Part shown: positions 2,177 to 15,626 of the stretch, one piece after another
Numbering within the stretch: position 1 is the stretch's first letter
How the letters are laid out: each line of letters begins with the position of its first letter
NCBI GenBank assembly: GCA_002729595.1
Contig: PBYL01000160.1
Location: forward strand, 11,957 to 35,956
Reading direction: 5' to 3'
From: Thalassovita sp.
GTDB taxonomy: Bacteria; Bacteroidota; Bacteroidia; Cytophagales; Flammeovirgaceae
DNA length: 24,000 nucleotides
Notes under the pieces: model-generated
Database searches by the model: none
The model's input: the letters and a program-made list of their open reading frames with translations, nothing else
Told to the model about the DNA's origin: nothing
Made by a program: the position numbers and the translations under genes

Positions 2177-2503
2177 ATGAAACAATTAGATTATCCTGTA
2201 GTAAGCAGGCTGTTTCCTTACTACGGAGTTACTTGTAAAATCAGTTTCGGCTGTTACGATGATGGAATGATTAGAGGATTTATCGCTATTCCATTTGATG
2301 AGCCAGTTTACCGATTTTCTTTTACAAGCAGCATCGTTTATAACAAGTTTAAGAAGAAAGTACTCGAATTTTCTGATACAGAAATTCAGAATTATGTAGA
2401 TAAAATCATAAAGTCCAATAAGACGGATGGTCAACCGGGCTTTTTAGAATTGAAAGATGTAATTATACCTTTCTTACAAATTAGAAGATATACCTGCCAA
2501 TAA
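2177..2503 (+). CDS. hypothetical protein (about 108 aa from the ATG)
   Basis: The ORF track gives 2105..2503 from a TTG. The first in-frame ATG is at 2177 (MKQLDYPVV...). I recognise no motif. A strong hairpin plus T-run follows immediately at 2491-2522, which supports a real transcription unit. Confidence 0.45.
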   Translation: MKQLDYPVVSRLFPYYGVTCKISFGCYDDGMIRGFIAIPFDEPVYRFSFTSSIVYNKFKKKVLEFSDTEIQNYVDKIIKSNKTDGQPGFLELKDVIIPFLQIRRYTCQ

Positions 2504-2522
2504 ATATGGCAGGTATTTTTTT
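2491..2522 (+). terminator. rho-independent terminator
   Basis: A perfect 9-bp stem TACCTGCCA / TGGCAGGTA (2491-2499 and 2507-2515) encloses a 7-nt loop and is followed by a run of seven T. It overlaps the stop of the 2177..2503 ORF and sits 2 nt from the stop of the convergent sulfatase gene. Confidence 0.8.
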
Positions 2523-2523
2523 G

Positions 2524-3963
2524 CTATTGGCTTTCCTCCGTATTAAATAGAGGCCAGTTGGGGTCGTGAACATGAGCCGAGTTTGCAATATCAACTAAAG
2601 TTTTAAGTACTTCCGGTTCTTGGTTTGCCAAGTTAGTTTCTTCTGATGGGTCAGTATCGAGATTGTAAAGTTCCCAGTCACCATTAGGATTTTTGTAAAC
2701 ATCAGTTCTTACAGCTTTCCAATTATCTTTTCTTACAGCTTGGCTTTTTCCTCCTTCATAAAATTCAAAATACAGGAATTCTTTAGCTTTTTGTTGCCCA
2801 CCTTTTAATGCGGCTAGGTAAGAAGTACCATCAGTATTTTCGGGAGCAGGTACGCCACCAATTTCACAAGCTGTTGGTAGAAAATCGACAAAGCTAGAAG
2901 CATGTGAAGAAGTGCTTCTAGCTTTTATAGTTTCTGGCCAGCGAGCAATAAACGGAATTCTGATGCCACCCTCATACAAATCTCTTTTACCGCCACGATA
3001 AATACCATTGCTATCAAAAAAGCGCGTAAAACCAACTGTTTCTTGCATTGGTCCATTATCGCTAGTGAAAATAATTAGGGTGTTTTCTCCTAATCCTAAT
3101 GAGTCAATTTTTGCAGTAATTTTTCCCACATAGTTATCAAGTCTTTCTATCATGGCAGCATAACCTAAACTGTCTGATGCCCAGTCTTCATTTTTGTAAC
3201 TACCGTAATCTGGTACCTCTTGTTTTTGCCCTTCGGGAGCTTCGCCATTGTTATGAGGGACAGTATAAGGGAGATATAGAAAAAATGGGGAATTATGGTT
3301 AGCATCAATAAATGAAAGTGCTTCATTTGTAAAAAGATCATTAGAATATTCTTTCTTTACAGTGGAATAACTGCCTAATCCACCGTGCCATTCTGTGCTA
3401 TCTAAATAATTTACTTCATTGTCGAGATAGATTTTTTCTTCATTCTTGATCAAGTATTCAGGATAGTAATTATGTGCTAAAACCTGATCGGTGTAACCAT
3501 AAAAATAATCCCAACCTTGTTTGTTTGGGCTGCCTTCTGTTTCCACATTACCCAATCCCCATTTACCGATCATTCCGGTTGTATATCCACCTTGTTTCAT
3601 TAACTCTGCAACAGTAACCATTTGAGATGGCAAAGGCATTTGACCAGAAGGTTGCCATTGTTTGTTACCACGCACAGCCGCATGGCCCATATGCATACCT
3701 GTCATCAACACACAACGAGAAGGTGCACATACAGAAGTACCTGCATAATGATCTGTAAATCGCATGCCTTGATTGGCCAACTTATCTATGTTAGGTGTTT
3801 TAATGAGTTGTTGACCATAGCAACCAACATCGGCATAGCCCATGTCGTCGGCCATAATGTAGATAATATTCGGCTTGGTGCTTTTTACTTCCTTAACAGT
3901 TGTATTTTCATTCTGGCAAGCGGCCAGTATAAATAGAAATATCAGGTATGCTAAATTTTTCAT
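2524..3963 (-). CDS. arylsulfatase (type I, formylglycine-dependent sulfatase family), predicted lipoprotein
   Basis: The N-terminus MKNLAYLIFLFILAAC has an SpII-like lipobox (LAAC). The metal-binding start is IIYIMADDMGYADVGCYG. The sulfatase signature CAPSRCVLMTG carries the C-x-P-x-R formylglycine motif. The C-terminal part has FTSDNGP and GGKRDLYEGGIRIPF, typical of S1 sulfatases. Confidence 0.92.
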   Translation of the reverse strand: MKNLAYLIFLFILAACQNENTTVKEVKSTKPNIIYIMADDMGYADVGCYGQQLIKTPNIDKLANQGMRFTDHYAGTSVCAPSRCVLMTGMHMGHAAVRGNKQWQPSGQMPLPSQMVTVAELMKQGGYTTGMIGKWGLGNVETEGSPNKQGWDYFYGYTDQVLAHNYYPEYLIKNEEKIYLDNEVNYLDSTEWHGGLGSYSTVKKEYSNDLFTNEALSFIDANHNSPFFLYLPYTVPHNNGEAPEGQKQEVPDYGSYKNEDWASDSLGYAAMIERLDNYVGKITAKIDSLGLGENTLIIFTSDNGPMQETVGFTRFFDSNGIYRGGKRDLYEGGIRIPFIARWPETIKARSTSSHASSFVDFLPTACEIGGVPAPENTDGTSYLAALKGGQQKAKEFLYFEFYEGGKSQAVRKDNWKAVRTDVYKNPNGDWELYNLDTDPSEETNLANQEPEVLKTLVDIANSAHVHDPNWPLFNTEESQ

Positions 3964-9612: not shown

Positions 9613-10446
9613 TTGCGAATAATAATCATAGTCATATATCTTCTCTCATTTGGAACTTTGAGTGCTCAGACACTTAGCGATTTTGGAGGAATTCCAAATA
9701 AAATTCAAGACACTATATCAGTGATGGAGCTTTTGGCTCAGCTAAAGTGGGATTCAATCGATGAATTTTGTAAAGAAAATAATGGGTTTCACTTGTACGT
9801 AAATGAAAAAGGACTTCTAAGGGAGTTTAGGTACATAAAACAAGGAAATGTTGAATCTTTTAAAATACTTAGCTATCAAGGTCAAGTTTTAGAATTTCGC
9901 TTTAATATACCAGAGTTAAAGAGAACAAATGAATATTTTTTTGATAAAAAATTATGGCTTCAATATGTGAATGAAATAATTCCAGACTTGCCAGATAGTC
10001 TTTTGCTAACAGAAGATGAACCGATAAATTTATTGAAAGGATTCTACTGGTTACTTGGGGTAGATGCTGTAGATGAATATGGTTGGGTTTGTGAATATTC
10101 AGCAATTGGAATGTTACCAACACGAAGAAAAGGTGTGATTACTTTAATTGAAAACAATCGAATTGACTTGCTTAGAAAACTAATGAGTCACACCAATCCT
10201 CAAATTAAACTTTATGCTATTGATGCTCTGATATATATGGATAAAATTGACAATATTTTAAGCGAACAAGATTGGCAATATATCTTTGGCTTTAGAGATA
10301 GCGGTACAATTATAAAAACCTGTGGAAATATGGGTTCCTACAAAATTTACGAAACACCAATTGCAGAACTTCTTTCTAAAAAAGCAATTAAAAGAATTCC
10401 CAAGAATTACAAGTTGCTAAATAGCAGAGTTTATTTCAGTAAATAG
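9613..10446 (+). CDS. secreted hypothetical protein
   Basis: The ORF has a TTG start per the track. The N-terminus MRIIIIVIYLLSFGTLSAQ has an SpI-like signal peptide. I recognise no motif. The C-terminal part (NPQIKLYAIDALIYMDK) is vaguely HEAT/ARM-like. AT-rich non-coding DNA flanks it on both sides. Confidence 0.6.
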   Translation: MRIIIIVIYLLSFGTLSAQTLSDFGGIPNKIQDTISVMELLAQLKWDSIDEFCKENNGFHLYVNEKGLLREFRYIKQGNVESFKILSYQGQVLEFRFNIPELKRTNEYFFDKKLWLQYVNEIIPDLPDSLLLTEDEPINLLKGFYWLLGVDAVDEYGWVCEYSAIGMLPTRRKGVITLIENNRIDLLRKLMSHTNPQIKLYAIDALIYMDKIDNILSEQDWQYIFGFRDSGTIIKTCGNMGSYKIYETPIAELLSKKAIKRIPKNYKLLNSRVYFSK

Positions 10447-10473
10447 AGTAACTATTCAATTTTAAATAATTCA

Positions 10474-10503
10474 TTATTATGTATACTTTAATACACATAA
10501 TAA
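10474..10503. terminator. AT-rich hairpin in a convergent intergenic region (possible bidirectional terminator)
   Basis: TTATTATGTATA / TATACACATAATAA-type inverted repeat of about 12 bp with one mismatch and a 6-nt loop. It lies between the stops of the 9613..10446 (+) and 10579..11214 (-) genes. The stem is all A/T except one G-C pair, so it is weak. Confidence 0.3.
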
Positions 10504-10578
10504 GCTAAAGGATCAGAAATATACTTTCTGGAAGTACAACTCAATAGAATAAGAGATAGGCTAATAGATAAAATTATT

Positions 10579-11214
10579 TTATTCATGTTCAACTTTCACT
10601 TTAGATGATTCTTTTAGTTTTTTGATCGTCTTTTCTAGTTCTGATAGTAAAACTTTTTCACTATTCATAAAGTCAGAAGTGAGGAGTTCAAGCGTTCCGA
10701 GTACATCAATTACTTTGGTTTCGGAGTTAATGGAAATCATTTTATTGAGAATGGTTTTACCAAATTCTGCATTAAAATCAAGGTGTTTATAGGTTTTAGA
10801 AATGAGATGAACCAACTCTATATCTGCTTCTTGCAAAGTACCTGTAATCTTAGAACTCTCAAAAGCAATATCTTCAGAATTTGTGATCACTATACCCTGC
10901 CAGCCTTCAATGCTCATATGATGGAATTTATCATTTGAGATATAGGGCAAAAACATGTCTTGCTCGGTTAGCTTGCTTTTTAGACTATCGATACTAACAC
11001 TTATTTGTTGATGATATTGATAAGATTTTTCTAAACTCGCTTTATTCGTTTCCAACTCTTCAAGAATATAAGAAAGTGATTTATTTACATTCTTATTTAC
11101 CTTCTGTTGCGCTTTCCATTCAGATACATACATACCCAGAAAAACACCAAATGCCACAGTGATTAATTCTAAAGCGTATTTTCCAAGTTGCTTTTTAATG
11201 CTGGTTAGATTCAT
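10579..11214 (-). CDS. N-terminally anchored coiled-coil membrane protein, unknown function
   Basis: One TM segment (YALELITVAFGVFLGMYVSEW) is followed by heptad-like charged stretches (LSYILEELETNKASLEKSYQYHQQISVSIDSLKSKLTEQD; LLSELEKTIKKLKESSK). It is the last gene of the minus-strand run that starts at 14192. Confidence 0.6.
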   Translation of the reverse strand: MNLTSIKKQLGKYALELITVAFGVFLGMYVSEWKAQQKVNKNVNKSLSYILEELETNKASLEKSYQYHQQISVSIDSLKSKLTEQDMFLPYISNDKFHHMSIEGWQGIVITNSEDIAFESSKITGTLQEADIELVHLISKTYKHLDFNAEFGKTILNKMISINSETKVIDVLGTLELLTSDFMNSEKVLLSELEKTIKKLKESSKVKVEHE

Positions 11215-11281
11215 ATAATAGGCAATTTTGACCTATTATAGTTAAAAAAACTGGTTTATCAATGGTTTGAGAATTTGTGCT

Positions 11282-11476
11282 TTAAAAAAACGAACCACAT
11301 ACACCTGCACCAATTACAAAGTATATACCTGCAATAATAAATAATACTTTCGCTGCTTTTGGCTTACTCTTTTTAAGTGCAAAACCGATAATAAGCAGAA
11401 GTATAGCAGGAGAATGCCCAATGAGGTATAGAATGAATATATCCAGAAATTGTATCGAAATCTCTAAAAATTGCAT
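11282..11476 (-). CDS. 64-aa two-TM mini-membrane protein
   Basis: Two hydrophobic helices are separated by the basic loop KKSKPKAAK, and the C-terminus is GAGVCGSFF with the only Cys in the protein. The ATG lies 2 nt after the radical SAM stop (TAA-AC-ATG), which implies translational coupling. Confidence 0.6.
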   Translation of the reverse strand: MQFLEISIQFLDIFILYLIGHSPAILLLIIGFALKKSKPKAAKVLFIIAGIYFVIGAGVCGSFF

Positions 11477-11478
11477 GT

Positions 11479-12873
11479 TTAGCTATGTTTTAGTTCTTCA
11501 AGATAAGCTTGCTTTTCATCTCGGTAAAAGAGATTCATGGTTTCGAATGGTATTATCTTGTTGTCTTTATTTACAATATGCACACAAGATTTTTTAATAG
11601 ACCTCACATCAAAATTATAAGCATCTACAAATTGCATAATAATTACCCTGAACAAATTATCGTAACTCAGGCTTGGTGCTTCAATTTTTGGTAAGCAACA
11701 AAGAATAGAATGCAAACCTTCTGAAGCAGCCTCAGAGGATGTTCCTGTACTAAACAACTCAAACATTTTATTTCTTAAATGTTCATCTTGTTCATATACT
11801 ATGGTATTTTTACTATTGTCTAATAGGTCAGCCGGATTAATGTAACGGGTAAGCGGCAGCACCATTCCACCAAGCTTTAAGGCATAGCCCATCGCCAAAG
11901 CATCTGGGTTGCAAGGCACTGGAATTATATCATCTTGATTAAAAACCTTGGCTTGCTCTAGTATTTTTCGGCGCACTTCGGTAAGGGTAATTCTATCTGT
12001 TTGAGCATCAAAATTATCTAACCTGCCTGCAATTTGTGTTGGTTGGAAAGTGACACCCCGCACACATTTTTGCTTAAGGGCAAAATCGATTGTTTTACCA
12101 ATCTCATCATCATTTAAACCTTTTTGCAAAGTAACCACTAAGGTAGTAGAGAGATTTAACTCATTAAGGTGTTGTAGTGCCTGCTCTCTTATCTTAAGTA
12201 AATCAGCCCCACGAAGCGATTGTAGCACTTCTTCTTTAAAAGAATCGAACTGCAAGTAAATTTCGAAATCGGGTGTATAGCTTTTTAGTCGCTTAGCAAA
12301 GTCGAAATCTTTGGCAATTTTAAGCCCATTGGTGTTTAGCATTATATGCTTAATGGGTAATTGCTTGGCATAATCGAGTATCTCAAAAAATTGTGGATGT
12401 AATGTAGGTTCGCCACCACTAATTTGCACTACGTCGGGTTCTTTCTCATTAGCAACAATAGTATCGAGCATCGTTTTTACCTCTTCTAAAGTGCGATGCC
12501 TGCCATAGGTAGGAGAGGAGCCTGCATAACAAGTAGGGCAAGTAAGATTACAACGATCGGTAATTTCTACCACGGTAAGGCAAGAGTGCTGCTCGTGGTC
12601 TGGGCACAGTCCACAATCGTAAGGGCAGCCATAATGGGTTTTGGTATTAAACTTATAGGGCATCTCAGAAGGCTTATTGTAATTCCTGATGTTTTTGTAA
12701 TACTCCACATCATCGGCAATGAGCACTTTGGAGTTACCATGCTCCGGACACCTTTTGAGCATGTATACCTTGTTGTTTTCAAATACAATTTTGGCATCAA
12801 TCCGCTTTAAACACTCTGGGCAGAGGCTTAGGGTAAAATCATAATAGGTGTACTTTCTGGTAGGCATGCTCAA
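11479..12873 (-). CDS. radical SAM enzyme with N-terminal zinc-ribbon/rubredoxin-like module and an auxiliary Cys cluster (class-D rSAM / Tes-like architecture)
   Basis: CPEC...CPEH (C18, C21, C42, H45) forms a zinc-ribbon-like motif. CPYDCGLCPDHEQHSC (C83, C87, C90, C98) is a candidate auxiliary Fe-S motif. The canonical CNLTCPTC (C108-x3-C112-x2-C115, nt 12529-12552) is followed by ISGGEPTL (GGE SAM-binding box). The C-terminal block is FRVIIMQFVDAYNFDVRSIKKSCVH. There is no C-terminal SPASM-type CxxCxxxxxC array. The TTG start overlaps the upstream gene by 35 nt. Confidence 0.88.
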   Translation of the reverse strand: MSMPTRKYTYYDFTLSLCPECLKRIDAKIVFENNKVYMLKRCPEHGNSKVLIADDVEYYKNIRNYNKPSEMPYKFNTKTHYGCPYDCGLCPDHEQHSCLTVVEITDRCNLTCPTCYAGSSPTYGRHRTLEEVKTMLDTIVANEKEPDVVQISGGEPTLHPQFFEILDYAKQLPIKHIMLNTNGLKIAKDFDFAKRLKSYTPDFEIYLQFDSFKEEVLQSLRGADLLKIREQALQHLNELNLSTTLVVTLQKGLNDDEIGKTIDFALKQKCVRGVTFQPTQIAGRLDNFDAQTDRITLTEVRRKILEQAKVFNQDDIIPVPCNPDALAMGYALKLGGMVLPLTRYINPADLLDNSKNTIVYEQDEHLRNKMFELFSTGTSSEAASEGLHSILCCLPKIEAPSLSYDNLFRVIIMQFVDAYNFDVRSIKKSCVHIVNKDNKIIPFETMNLFYRDEKQAYLEELKHS

Positions 12874-13600
12874 AAAATTTTACGATTGTTTTCCTATAAT
12901 ATATCCAACAGATAATGCATAACCATTGGATGCTACTAAGCCCAAGTATAAAGAAAAGATTTGGTTTAATGAATTCTATATTGAACCTGAAACCAAAATA
13001 GGCAATCATAAAAATAATAAAGAGCTCTCCGTTTTTAAGTGAGTTTTTAGATTTTAAGTGCTGAATTACAAAAAACAGAATAAGTAAAAACACCAGTTCA
13101 TACAAGGCAATAGGATGCCTTAATACACCATCGCCCAGATTTATGCCTGTAAAAAAGTGAGTTTCTGAACCGTAAGTGAATTCGTTGGTACCGCTTAAAA
13201 AGCAGCCAATTCTACCTATAAAAATACCTACAATAATTGGTAGGGTAAACAGATCACCAGAAGATTGCTCTTCGCCAATTATTTTCTTGGCGATTTCTAC
13301 ACCTATAAGCCCGCCAAACAGGCCGCCCATAATGGTTTTAACATTAAGCAGGTGTATAAAGCTTTCTGATGAAAAATTGATAACCGGATTTTCTAAGAAA
13401 CCAAATAAACGTGAGCCCAGAAAAGAACCGATAATGGCTCCCAAAATAATAGACAAACGATTCCCACCTGAGATATGATCATTCGATTTCTTCCTCAGAA
13501 ATACATAATATCTGAAAGCCAGAAAGAATGATAAATACTCAGTAATTAAATGGATATTGATTTTTATCCCAAAAAATACTGGTTCGAAGGGGATGTTCAA
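12839..13600 (-). CDS. prolipoprotein diacylglyceryl transferase (Lgt) family membrane protein, possibly a divergent paralog
   Basis: The polytopic protein has blocks that align by eye with E. coli Lgt. GGLFGGLIGV matches GMSFHGGLIGV. GRIGCFLSGTNEFTYG matches GRLGNFINGELWG. RHPIALYELVFLLILFFV matches RHPSQLYELLLEGVVLFI. FGFRFNIEFIKPN matches GAFRIIVEFFRQPD. It has a TTG start per the track and is 253 aa. Confidence 0.8.
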   Translation of the reverse strand: MNIPFEPVFFGIKINIHLITEYLSFFLAFRYYVFLRKKSNDHISGGNRLSIILGAIIGSFLGSRLFGFLENPVINFSSESFIHLLNVKTIMGGLFGGLIGVEIAKKIIGEEQSSGDLFTLPIIVGIFIGRIGCFLSGTNEFTYGSETHFFTGINLGDGVLRHPIALYELVFLLILFFVIQHLKSKNSLKNGELFIIFMIAYFGFRFNIEFIKPNLFFILGLSSIQWLCIICWIYYRKTIVKFFEHAYQKVHLL

Positions 13601-13676
13601 GGTTGTGTGTTTTAGGCAAAGATAGGTCTCGATTGGATAACAACCCCCTAAAGTTTAGTTAATCTGTAACTACGAA

Positions 13677-14192
13677 TTACTCAGAAGCATAAATATCTTG
13701 CATATTTTTACCTGCTCCCAATACGCATTTCTTATTCACATAATCTACAATAATACCATAATCTCTCATGGCATCTGAGCCAATTATACCGCTTATTTCG
13801 TAGCCTGTTTTGCTCTTAATAGATGCTCTCAATTGTTGAAGAGGGGCACCAGCATAAGGAGTAGAAATGTTTTTTCCTCCAATGTTTACATTTACATCGA
13901 ATAACATCCAAAGATTTAAGTTTTTGCCACCAAATCCATTAATGTTACGAGAGAGTTTTTTGTAAACATTAAAAGCATAGTCTCTTTTTTGAGTTAAGTC
14001 TAGCAATGTTATGCTTGAGCCGGTATCAATTAAAAAGTATGCTTTTTTGTTGTTAAGTGTTCCTTCGACTACTGGTAATTTTGTGCTCAGTAAATCAATA
14101 TGAACGGGCTTGCCAGGAAATGAAACAGTAAATTTTTGTGCACTTAAATGTGAAAAAGTTACTAGAAGAAAAATAGTAATTAAAAATCTCAT
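13677..14192 (-). CDS. secreted retropepsin-like (clan AA) aspartic protease
   Basis: The signal peptide is MRFLITIFLLVTFSHLSAQ. The catalytic-type triad context is YFLIDTGSSITLLD (D56, nt 14025-14027). The downstream ISGIIGSDAM resembles the (I/L)-(I/L)-G-x-D box of single-domain retropepsin-like proteases that act as homodimers. The protein is 171 aa. Confidence 0.75.
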   Translation of the reverse strand: MRFLITIFLLVTFSHLSAQKFTVSFPGKPVHIDLLSTKLPVVEGTLNNKKAYFLIDTGSSITLLDLTQKRDYAFNVYKKLSRNINGFGGKNLNLWMLFDVNVNIGGKNISTPYAGAPLQQLRASIKSKTGYEISGIIGSDAMRDYGIIVDYVNKKCVLGAGKNMQDIYASE

Positions 14193-14489
14193 TAATACTA
14201 CATGTTTCTGATAAATTAAGTTGAGGCTCTGAAATGGAGCTCTGTTAGTGAAGGCTCATATTTAACTTAAATATCAAACATCGAAGTCTGAATACCATAA
14301 AAATAACATATTTGATATGTAAATAAAAGCTAGAATTCGCTGAAAGTATATTTGACCTATCTTAATTAGGTAAAGTTCAAGTAAGGTTTATGGCCTGAAA
14401 CGAGAAAAATATGTAGTACATAACATAGCGTTTTTTTAGTGATATTGAAGTACTCATAAAATAGCTGCTAAATCCACAAAGTATTTAGA

Positions 14490-14497
14490 TAAATTTG
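14490..14497 (+). promoter_or_regulatory. candidate Bacteroidota -7 promoter box (TAnnTTTG)
   Basis: TAAATTTG matches the TAnnTTTG consensus of Bacteroidota sigma-A promoters exactly and lies about 50-75 nt upstream of the TPR gene starts (14547 TTG, 14574 ATG). I see no clear -33 TTG element, so this is tentative. Confidence 0.3.
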
Positions 14498-14573
14498 GGA
14501 AAAAGTACATCTACATTGCTGATTTTTAAAAACTAGTAAAATATTATTGAGCCAAAATTGGTATAAGATTAAA

Positions 14574-15626
14574 ATGAGAAAAAACTGGATTTTATTTATA
14601 ATTTTTTTGCTTTCAAGTCTAAATTTACTCGCTCAAGGTGCAGATGAATACAATTACAAGGGAGTGGTTTTGTATAACAAAGAGAAGTATGAGGCTGCTA
14701 TTTCTGCTTTTGATAATGCTATAAAAATTGATAGTCGACATGCTGATGCATATTTACACCGTGCTGATGCGAAAGCTGAACTTGATGACTTTGAGGCTGC
14801 AATTAAAGATTACAATAAAGCAATTGAACTTAATCCCAAAAGTAGTTATGCTTATGCACGTCGAGGTTTTGCAAAATACAATTTAGATGATTTTAACGAA
14901 GCTTGGTTAGATTATAAAATTGCTCTAAGTATAGACCCAGAAAATGCATACGCTTACTATTACCGTGGTTTATATTTTTCGGCAGAAAGTGAAAATGGGA
15001 AAGCATTGCAAGATTTAAACAAGGCGCTAAAATTAGATCCAGAATTAACAGATGTATATGGTGATAGAGCATATGTTAAAGATGATTTGATAAAATATAA
15101 AAGTGCTGTAAAAGACTATGATAAAGCTATAAAGTTCGACCCAGACAATGCCGATTTATATTTCAATAGAGCTTATAGTAAACATAATTTGGGGAAGTTT
15201 GAGGCAGCGATTAAAGACTATTCTAAAGTAATAGAGTTGACTCCTTTAGACCATAAAGCCTATAATAACAGAGGTTTAGCTAAATACAAATTGAAAAGAT
15301 TTAAGGAGGCCATTATGGATTTTGAAAAATCTTTACAATTAGCTCCTGATACTACATCTCAACCTTTATATAATCGAGGTTTGGCAAAACATTCATTAGA
15401 TCAGTTCGCCGCTGCTATTGAGGATTACAACATAGCCTTGGAGTTAGCGCCACACAATGAGGCAGAGGTTTATAGATTTAGGGGCTTGGCAAAATCAGCA
15501 CTTAAGAATTATGAAGGCGCAATTGATGATTTACAAAAAGCACAAGAAATAAAACCTGAAAGTAACACGATTAGGAAAAACCTTCGATATGTAGAGTATT
15601 TAAAAGAGTCTGAAAGCGAAGAGTAG
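14574..15626 (+). CDS. secreted tetratricopeptide-repeat (TPR) protein
   Basis: From the ATG at 14574 the protein reads MRKNWILFIIFLLSSLNLLAQG (signal peptide). About nine consecutive 34-aa TPR units follow (recurring A-Y-x-x-R-(G/A)-x-A-K-x-x-L-x-x-(F/Y)-x-x-A-I-x-D-(Y/F)-x-K-A-(I/L)-x-(I/L)-(D/N)-P). The track start at TTG 14547 adds nine residues. Confidence 0.9.
   Translation: MRKNWILFIIFLLSSLNLLAQGADEYNYKGVVLYNKEKYEAAISAFDNAIKIDSRHADAYLHRADAKAELDDFEAAIKDYNKAIELNPKSSYAYARRGFAKYNLDDFNEAWLDYKIALSIDPENAYAYYYRGLYFSAESENGKALQDLNKALKLDPELTDVYGDRAYVKDDLIKYKSAVKDYDKAIKFDPDNADLYFNRAYSKHNLGKFEAAIKDYSKVIELTPLDHKAYNNRGLAKYKLKRFKEAIMDFEKSLQLAPDTTSQPLYNRGLAKHSLDQFAAAIEDYNIALELAPHNEAEVYRFRGLAKSALKNYEGAIDDLQKAQEIKPESNTIRKNLRYVEYLKESESEE

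Follow-up and report, generated by a model that had tools for sequence, protein, structure and literature searches.

What would a bacterium do with a relative of prolipoprotein diacylglyceryl transferase (Lgt) whose gene runs into that of an enzyme of the radical S-adenosylmethionine (SAM) superfamily, with a tiny membrane protein encoded immediately downstream? The question is raised by a cluster of minus-strand genes on contig PBYL01000160.1 of the assembly GCA_002729595.1, in a stretch of 24,000 nt (positions 11,957 to 35,956 of the forward strand) that is referred to here as the window and within which all coordinates are counted. From the sequence alone, the cluster had been read as a possible five-gene system for tailoring membrane lipids or lipoproteins. 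Comparative work shows that what is conserved is a membrane module of three genes, present in several bacterial phyla and in one DPANN archaeal genome, and consisting of an Lgt-like protein, a Tes-like radical SAM enzyme (rSAM), and a mini-protein with an invariant cysteine. The kinds of protein involved, namely the Tes-family lipid radical SAM enzymes and the Lgt fold, are known ones. What is new is the link, through overlapping or fused genes, between a large clade of bacterial Tes homologues and an Lgt paralog, and the tie of this clade to a Cys-tailed mini-protein. The original prediction is, therefore, partly supported: the observation is confirmed, and the three-gene core and the direction towards lipid chemistry hold, but the five-gene scope and an analogy drawn from a neighboring protease do not.

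Conservation of a Three-Gene Core

Five open reading frames (ORFs) encoding proteins of 171, 253, 464, 64, and 211 aa lie on the minus strand exactly where they had first been placed. The same five genes (171/253/462/64/211 aa) were also called independently on contigs from Tara Oceans in which rSAM is 100% identical. Within this arrangement, the gene for the Lgt-like membrane protein (12839..13600, 253 aa, TTG start) is followed by that for rSAM (11479..12873, 464 aa when read from TTG 12873) and then by that for a two-helix membrane mini-protein (11282..11476, 64 aa). The first two ORFs overlap by 35 nt, as originally described, if rSAM begins at TTG 12873, and by 29 nt if it begins at ATG 12867, which is the start used in the databases and the probable one (462 aa). 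The ATG of the mini-protein gene likewise lies 2 nt from the rSAM stop.

A scan of one genome per species recovered at least 571 genomes with a close relative of rSAM, and gene neighborhoods were counted in the best 80 loci (rSAM identity of 81–86%), distributed among the Flavobacteriia, Cytophagia, Chitinophagia, and Saprospiria. The Lgt-like gene accompanies rSAM in all 80 (60–72% identity), and its stop overlaps the rSAM ATG by 11, 29, or 41 nt in 66 of them. Directly downstream of rSAM, the mini-protein gene is found in 77 of the 80 loci, with a median start only 3 nt past the rSAM stop. The two genes that flank this trio in the window, one for a 171-aa protease-like protein and the other for a 211-aa protein, were not conserved at all (0/80 for each), and the genes on either side of the five-gene cluster showed no conservation either. 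When all flanking ORFs in these loci were clustered, no further recurrent neighbor emerged, and genes for LepA, Dus, a LolE-like protein, and RbfA recurred within sub-lineages only. Because the core genes are retained so consistently and the two outer genes are missing, the conserved unit comprises three genes rather than five. The physical coupling of the core that had been noted in the window is clearly borne out on the evolutionary level as well, and the core order is kept far beyond related genomes, as described below.

The extent of the first overlap varies with the end of the Lgt-like ORF. In most orthologs this ORF stops after "...AY", leaving an 11-nt overlap with rSAM, and the window version reads eight residues further (QKVHLL...). 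In-frame conservation past the ortholog stop, seen in loci L003 and L004, is attributable to the overlap with the highly conserved rSAM N-terminus.

A Radical SAM Enzyme with the Tes Fold

The rSAM protein matches the Pfam Radical_SAM domain (PF04055) at 94.4 bits against a threshold of 29.5, and the Zn_ribbon_HMPTM domain at 74 bits. Its closest solved structure is that of GDGT-MAS/Tes (PDB 7TOL; E = 2e-72). An AlphaFold2 (AF2) model of rSAM (pLDDT 88.7) was aligned to 7TOL by Foldseek over its whole length, with a TMq of 0.81 across 495 columns, and the next folds in line reached TM-scores of 0.38–0.44. Structural alignments with 7TOL and 7TOM give an identity of roughly 30–32%. The model shows the four-domain fold of Tes, with rubredoxin-like, N-cluster, radical SAM, and C-cluster domains, and the motifs for the first three of these have the same spacing in both enzymes. 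Thus, the rubredoxin-like motif C18-X2-C21-X20-C42-X2-H45 corresponds to the published C9X2C12X20C33X2H36 of Tes, the N-terminal auxiliary cluster motif C83-X3-C87-X2-C90 corresponds to the published C73/C77/C80, and the radical SAM motif C108-X3-C112-X2-C115 is invariant. Moreover, M413 of rSAM aligns with Met439, the labile cluster ligand of Tes. The prediction that rSAM belongs to a multi-cluster family acting on unactivated lipid carbons is accordingly supported by its homology to Tes/GDGT-MAS.

Differences from Tes are concentrated in the C-terminal part. Residues 322–403 of rSAM form a region that is shorter than its Tes counterpart and that cannot be aligned to it by sequence. Three of the four Cys residues in the C-terminal domain of Tes are replaced (Ile for Cys438, Ser for Cys455, and Glu for Cys470), and Tyr459, which is conserved in archaeal homologues, corresponds to Ile433. 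Conversely, the invariant Cys321, Cys392, and Cys393 of rSAM are new with respect to Tes, and Cys430 is also invariant. Among 77 Bacteroidota sequences from four classes, 277 of the 464 rSAM positions and all 15 Cys residues are invariant, a pattern that points to unusually strong purifying selection across the phylum.

By curated profiles, the best full-length match of rSAM is to TrsS (NF045646), with 337.8 bits against a cutoff of 490 (rSAM residues 14–457, profile positions 3–440/441). The Tes profile NF045702 gives 303 bits against a cutoff of 450 and covers residues 14–322 only. The authors of the Tes structure could not corroborate an unrelated function, the old "pterin dimethyltransferase" annotation of the family, which persists as the JGI label on rSAM relatives (7,8-dihydro-6-hydroxymethylpterin dimethyltransferase). 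A defense-system reading of the core was also considered and rejected, as PADLOC gives rSAM generic rSAM-core (pVip) matches only.

An Lgt Paralog with Replaced Residues

The Lgt-like protein is named "prolipoprotein diacylglyceryl transferase" in the databases, and it does match the Pfam LGT domain (PF01790) at 84.4 bits against a threshold of 24.9. In addition, its AF2 model (pLDDT 76) has E. coli Lgt (PDB 5AZB) as the sole significant fold match in the PDB. It nevertheless scores under every lgt equivalog cutoff, including that of TIGR00544 (40.7 versus 118.9 bits), and it is missing the periplasmic head domain of Lgt. Residues were mapped by alignment with an E. coli Lgt sequence that agrees with retrieved fragments of it. 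Equivalents of D129, R143, E151, H196, Y201, E202, Y235, R239, and E243 are kept. H103 is replaced by Phe and N146 by Cys, both replacements being invariant in the Lgt-like subfamily (motif GRIGCFLSG), and in the alignment Y26 and G154 are not conserved. Among the residues reportedly essential or important in E. coli Lgt, in work attributed to Pailler (2012) and Mao (2016), are Y26, H103, R143, N146, E151, G154, R239, and E243.

A Cyclobacteriaceae chromosome (OZ245814.1, locus L003) clarifies the relationship. It encodes a canonical lgt (2358–3260) about 3 kb upstream of the module, with 141 bits to TIGR00544, above the cutoff of 118.9, and with the equivalents of H103, N146, E151, and G154 kept. 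The Lgt-like gene adjoining rSAM in the same locus reaches 51 bits with that profile. Since this chromosome encodes a canonical lgt as well, the Lgt-like gene is a paralog of the housekeeping gene and not the sole housekeeping lgt, with the coexistence of the two seen in this one genome. A second, non-lipoprotein role for the Lgt fold is thereby suggested.

A Membrane Mini-Protein with an Invariant Cysteine

In the third family, whose members are 56–70 aa in length, two helices are hydrophobic, the loop is basic, and a G-x-C motif (GAGVCGSFF* in the window) is invariant. The invariant Cys lies 3–9 residues from the C-terminus and 16–24 residues past the last Lys or Arg. By the positive-inside rule, this would place the Cys at the periplasmic end of helix 2. 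Its geometry would then be that of a lipobox Cys following the h-region of a signal peptide, and it would face the same side of the membrane as the Lgt active site. No match to the mini-protein was found in Pfam or NCBIfam.

Distant Relatives and Gene Fusions

An exhaustive search of 50%-identity representatives yielded full-length relatives of rSAM at 31–59% identity. In two of these, P0123 and P0255, the LGT domain, the zinc ribbon, and the radical SAM domain follow one another in a single polypeptide. Such LGT::rSAM fusions, of 656–825 aa, make up at least 57 clusters at 90% identity (that of P0123 plus 56 more), with named members from Tepidisphaerales (Planctomycetota) and Verrucomicrobiota. 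The C-terminus of E. coli Lgt is reported to be cytoplasmic. The fusion order fits this topology, and the SAM-dependent domain would therefore lie in the cytoplasm.

Unfused LGT-family genes stand immediately beside rSAM in Fibrobacterota, in an uncultured clade at 59% identity, and in one further clade. A Pacearchaeota metagenome-assembled genome (MAG) has an LGT-family gene beside rSAM in the same overlapping upstream arrangement, and in Thermincola the LGT gene adjoins rSAM on the downstream side. The motif GR[IVL]GC, with its Cys, recurs in the LGT proteins of Fibrobacterota, Pacearchaeota, and Thermincola and in the fusions. All ten of the rSAM relatives that were sampled score under the cutoffs of both Tes and TrsS.

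The mini-protein can also be followed some way. When the Bacteroidota profile was run against 472 small ORFs, the top match was a 104-aa gene downstream of the Pacearchaeota rSAM (E = 7e-4), with an alignment running through the G-x-C motif. Cys-tailed small proteins adjoin the pairs or fusions at loci L086, L087, L089, L094, and L095. Small membrane proteins with a similar Cys end are encoded beside the pair in Thermincola and immediately downstream of two fusions of the Planctomycetota-Verrucomicrobiota-Chlamydiota (PVC) group, with only the motif in common. For the Thermincola protein, homology to the Bacteroidota mini-protein family was undetectable by hidden Markov model (HMM), and only the Pacearchaeota protein was detected.

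Several other features of these distant loci were recorded. PVC-type loci encode a family of 430–475 aa, rhodanese-like at the N-terminus and with a Cys-rich membrane part (C-x4-C-x2-C-x6-C) of several passes, that is translationally coupled to the LGT::rSAM fusions (L094:2580-4004, L095:2703-4001, L083:4686-6065, and L089:8632-9422). A role in sulfur trafficking was considered for this family and rejected. Its members do not share the catalytic Cys of rhodaneses (CNGGIQS, STAGIQS, and DDVGWAS), and the family is absent from the Bacteroidota loci and the window, for which reasons it is not taken as evidence of sulfur insertion. In the Thermincola MAG, the region downstream of the rSAM/LGT pair (L087:6173-7818) encodes a SaoE/ArsP-like permease and a second protein in which a YedE-like part (sulfur/selenium transport) is joined to an isoprenylcysteine-methyltransferase-like part, all under curated cutoffs. 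Tes-like radical SAM domains also occur in other fusions, including P0242 (861 aa), which combines a MobA-like NTP transferase, an HD domain, and rSAM, and P0238 (688 aa) of Clostridia, which combines rSAM with DUF5714. The Tes-like radical SAM family seems to have diversified into several functions.

Proposed Function of the Module

The Lgt-like protein, rSAM, and the mini-protein very probably work as one functional module. As to what they do, the favored reading is radical chemistry on lipid tails by a three-gene membrane module, with the mini-protein Cys as a possible lipid acceptor, and we would give this reading as a whole a probability of about one half. In such a scheme, the Lgt-like subunit would be a seven-helix inner-membrane protein that binds the head group of a phosphoglycerolipid, a capacity that the retained equivalents of R143, R239, E151, E243, Y235, and H196 suggest it still has. 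Its C-terminus would dock onto the cytoplasmic rSAM, or be fused to it. The 5′-deoxyadenosyl radical formed by rSAM would take a hydrogen from an unactivated carbon of the hydrocarbon tail, as in Tes, and the C-terminal Fe-S cluster would then form a C–C or C–S bond. A lipid hydrocarbon chain is somewhat favored as the substrate. The favored candidate for accepting or carrying the lipid would be the mini-protein Cys, as its geometry matches that of a lipobox Cys after an h-region; the Lgt-like enzyme would transfer an S-diacylglyceryl group to it, or a radical thioether would form there. That this Cys is indeed a lipid attachment site can be put forward only tentatively. A protein-linked or low-abundance product is preferred over a bulk lipid, since the many cultured carriers are not known to us to make any unusual lipid and the invariant Cys residues would otherwise be left without a role.

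A bolder and rather unlikely form of this reading would make the module a machine for both protein lipidation and lipid crosslinking, in which the Lgt paralog and the Tes-like rSAM build a mini membrane protein that covalently bears lipid. The product could conceivably be a thioether at the C-terminal Cys of the mini-protein, or an S-diacylglyceryl group with radical-coupled tails. If true, this would be a hitherto unrecognized lipidation and crosslinking system, with a conservation that extends from Bacteroidota and PVC bacteria as far as the DPANN archaea.

Several points weigh against the favored reading. To our knowledge, none of the well-studied Flavobacteria has been reported to make an unusual lipid. 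The chemistry ascribed to the module derives from homology only. Also by homology, the Lgt active site would be periplasmic and rSAM cytoplasmic, so that a single lipid would have to reach sites on both faces of the membrane. The rSAM protein falls under the cutoffs of both the Tes profile (303 versus 450 bits) and the TrsS profile (338 versus 490 bits), and its substrate and reaction outcome may differ from those of Tes, given the unaligned region 322–403 and the replaced C-cluster Cys residues and Tyr459. Likewise, the Lgt-like protein may not be a transferase at all, because it lacks residues that are said to be important or essential in the E. coli enzyme (H103, N146, and probably Y26 and G154). 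Two relatives of rSAM, at about 41–42% identity, have no LGT neighbor. Finally, the residue preceding the mini-protein Cys is Ile or Val, which is outside the canonical lipobox, and the small proteins of the PVC loci are not detectably homologous to the mini-protein family by HMM.

Alternative Explanations

The core enzyme could conceivably serve bulk lipid synthesis, with rSAM as the bacterial equivalent of Tes, coupling two iso-branched acyl chains through their terminal carbons into membrane-spanning or macrocyclic lipids of the iso-diabolic acid type. The Lgt-like protein would then only extract or present the phospholipid, and the mini-protein would be a structural subunit. The retained Tes fold and cofactor motifs of rSAM and the retained phospholipid-binding residues of the Lgt-like protein would fit such a synthase, and iso-C15:0 is a major fatty acid of Bacteroidota. 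Zeng et al. have in fact proposed bacterial Tes homologues as synthases of brGDGTs (branched glycerol dialkyl glycerol tetraethers) and iso-diabolic acid, with iso-C15 tails resembling phytanyl termini. A bulk-lipid synthase would, however, give no account of the invariant Cys of the mini-protein or of the Cys at the N146 position of the Lgt-like protein, it would have to operate with the C-cluster Cys residues and Tyr459 of Tes replaced, and it would need a partner that archaeal Tes works without. Moreover, the module is present in many cultured Flavobacteriia, none of which is known to us to have membrane-spanning lipids, and Tes homologues were detected in only 3 of 14 Acidobacteria that produce iso-diabolic acid. 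On balance, bulk synthesis seems unlikely. Less likely still is a substrate other than an acyl chain, such as the tail of another phosphorylated or membrane isoprenoid (polyprenyl phosphate or menaquinone) or else a cofactor that is not a lipid, of the kind implied by the pterin label that relatives still bear. It is true that the native substrates of Tes are isoprenoid termini, that the two conserved Arg residues of the Lgt-like protein would bind the phosphate of any lipid, and that acyl lipids differ greatly among the phyla with the module, an archaeon included. Against this stand the uncorroborated pterin function, the long hydrophobic tunnel of the Tes active site, which is judged unlikely to suit a pterin-type substrate, and a conserved neighborhood with no gene for pterin, quinone, or polyprenol; a membrane partner also argues against a soluble substrate.

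The remaining alternatives concern the boundaries of the system, and on these the comparative evidence is far more decisive. The original prediction had seen in the aspartic protease beside an Lgt-like gene an echo of lipoprotein maturation by Lgt and signal peptidase II. In a five-gene tailoring system of this sort, the protease would take the peptidase-like role and the 211-aa coiled-coil protein would participate as well. The shared strand, the short gaps with no predicted terminator between the genes, and the identical arrangement on several Tara contigs are all in keeping with it. Neither the protease nor the 211-aa gene is present, however, in any of the 80 related loci or of the distant loci examined, which leaves the protease analogy without comparative support; in addition, the protease assignment rests on a sub-threshold Pfam match, and an exact -7-type promoter motif separates it from the core. 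A five-gene system is, therefore, largely refuted by comparative genomics and very improbable. Coincidental adjacency of a housekeeping lgt and a functionally unrelated rSAM, for which the database name of the Lgt-like protein might be cited, is refuted for practical purposes. The protein scores under all lgt equivalog cutoffs and has invariant changes at H103 and N146, the L003 chromosome encodes a canonical lgt besides (141 bits), and at least 57 clusters of fusions join the two domains physically. The pair is found even in an archaeal MAG, and archaea are, as far as we know, not users of the Lgt pathway.

Relation to Known Systems

The nearest characterized relative of rSAM is Tes/GDGT-MAS of M. 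jannaschii (MJ0619, PDB 7TOL/7TOM, NF045702), which acts natively on isoprenoid termini and carries out radical coupling via its C-terminal cluster. The two share the four-domain fold, the rubredoxin-like, N-terminal-cluster (including its His), and CX3CX2C motifs, and a Met of rSAM aligns with Met439. Unlike Tes, rSAM has an Lgt-like partner, to which it is sometimes fused, and it is bacterial, with carriers from which neither biphytanyl nor membrane-spanning lipids are known. Both Zeng et al. and Lloyd et al., in the papers that discovered Tes, noted bacterial Tes homologues in organisms without biphytanyl lipids and left their function open, and a 2026 review describes such homologues only as "detected bioinformatically". 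TrsS, a radical SAM (seleno)protein (NF045646), is another uncharacterized relative of Tes under whose cutoff the window rSAM falls; the literature on it consists of table entries, and no function or partner was found there. The Lgt-like protein, in turn, shares with E. coli Lgt (PDB 5AZB, TIGR00544) the Pfam LGT domain, the seven-helix fold, and the Arg, Glu, Tyr, and His residues that bind phospholipid. It differs in having Phe for H103 and Cys for N146, in its missing head domain, and in being tied or fused to rSAM.

Two further kinds of enzyme offer looser parallels. Mss of Thermotoga and Thermoanaerobacter is a bacterial radical SAM enzyme that has been proposed to join acyl tails tail-to-tail, and a bacterial Tes-like enzyme might perform a reaction of this kind. 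It belongs to a different radical SAM family, with no Lgt-like or mini-protein partner described, and Tes homologues have not been detected in producers of Mss-type membrane-spanning lipids. The maturases of sactipeptide-type systems resemble the module in that a radical SAM enzyme with auxiliary clusters is encoded beside a small protein, in the present case one with an invariant Cys near its C-terminus. The formation of thioethers at an auxiliary cluster is an established radical SAM reaction. Unlike the substrates of those maturases, the mini-protein is an integral membrane protein, conserved in the manner of a subunit and with no leader/core organization. Furthermore, the window rSAM has no SPASM/twitch domain by profile, and its model reaches a TM-score of only 0.38 with SkfB.

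Full-text literature searches found no paper characterizing such a bacterial Tes homologue or an LGT-rSAM module, and for Flavobacterium and Riemerella they turned up nothing on mutants or on annotation. The earlier remark that no characterized pathway combines these parts is thus upheld. With its three genes, the module is a concrete target for study in relatives of bacteria that are amenable to genetics (Flavobacterium and Riemerella), and the finding bears on which bacteria can make the proxy lipids of the brGDGT type.

Flanking Genes, Putative Regulatory Elements, and Origin of the Contig

Upstream of the core, the 171-aa gene (13677..14192, minus strand) encodes a putative secreted protein of the retropepsin-like kind. 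Pfam bears out the domain assignments made from the sequence alone for LGT, Radical_SAM, and the zinc ribbon. For the protease it gives only 21.1 bits with PF13650, under the cutoff of 24.3, although the translation shows an "IDTGSS" (DTGS) motif and an N-terminus resembling a signal peptide. The gene was found only on near-identical Tara contigs. The same protein matches the PADLOC candidate defense family PDC-M08B (E = 2e-7, 29 bits). Downstream, across a gap of 67 nt from the core, the 211-aa gene (10579..11214, minus strand) encodes a protein with an N-terminal transmembrane helix and a helical region that had no match in Pfam or NCBIfam. Both of these lineage-specific genes lie outside the module as unrelated local neighbors. 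The 67-nt gap holds a strong σ70-type match, TTGATA-16-TATAAT (11 of 12 positions, 11235-11262, minus strand); Bacteroidota normally use a different promoter consensus.

A near match to TAnnTTTG had been noted upstream of the Lgt-like start, and the match is in fact exact. The candidate Bacteroidota-type -7 element TATCTTTG (13617..13624, minus strand) ends 16 nt 5′ of the Lgt-like TTG start and could be a promoter giving the core a separate transcript. TAnnTTTG is not enriched in the window (31 occurrences observed versus 38 expected), which makes the element weak evidence for a promoter. The gap upstream of the cluster is 354 bp, as described, when measured to the longest plus-strand ORF, and 381 bp when measured to the independently called start. 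At the other end, the convergent intergenic hairpin at about 10474–10503 proved to be real, with a 13-bp AT-rich stem and a folding z-score of -2.1. No terminators were predicted in the gaps between the five genes, and an Rfam scan of 10300–14700 gave no match, leaving the idea of a riboswitch or other RNA regulator there without support.

The closest named genome to the window is that of Chondrinema litorale, with an rSAM identity of 99%. The database proteins with 100% identity (P0001/P0319) are labelled "MAG: Thalassobius/Thalassovita sp.", a name belonging to the Alphaproteobacteria. As the relatives are all Bacteroidota and the closest isolate is C. litorale, the contig behind this label was probably mis-binned. 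Locus L011 likewise carries an out-of-place label, that of Comamonadaceae.

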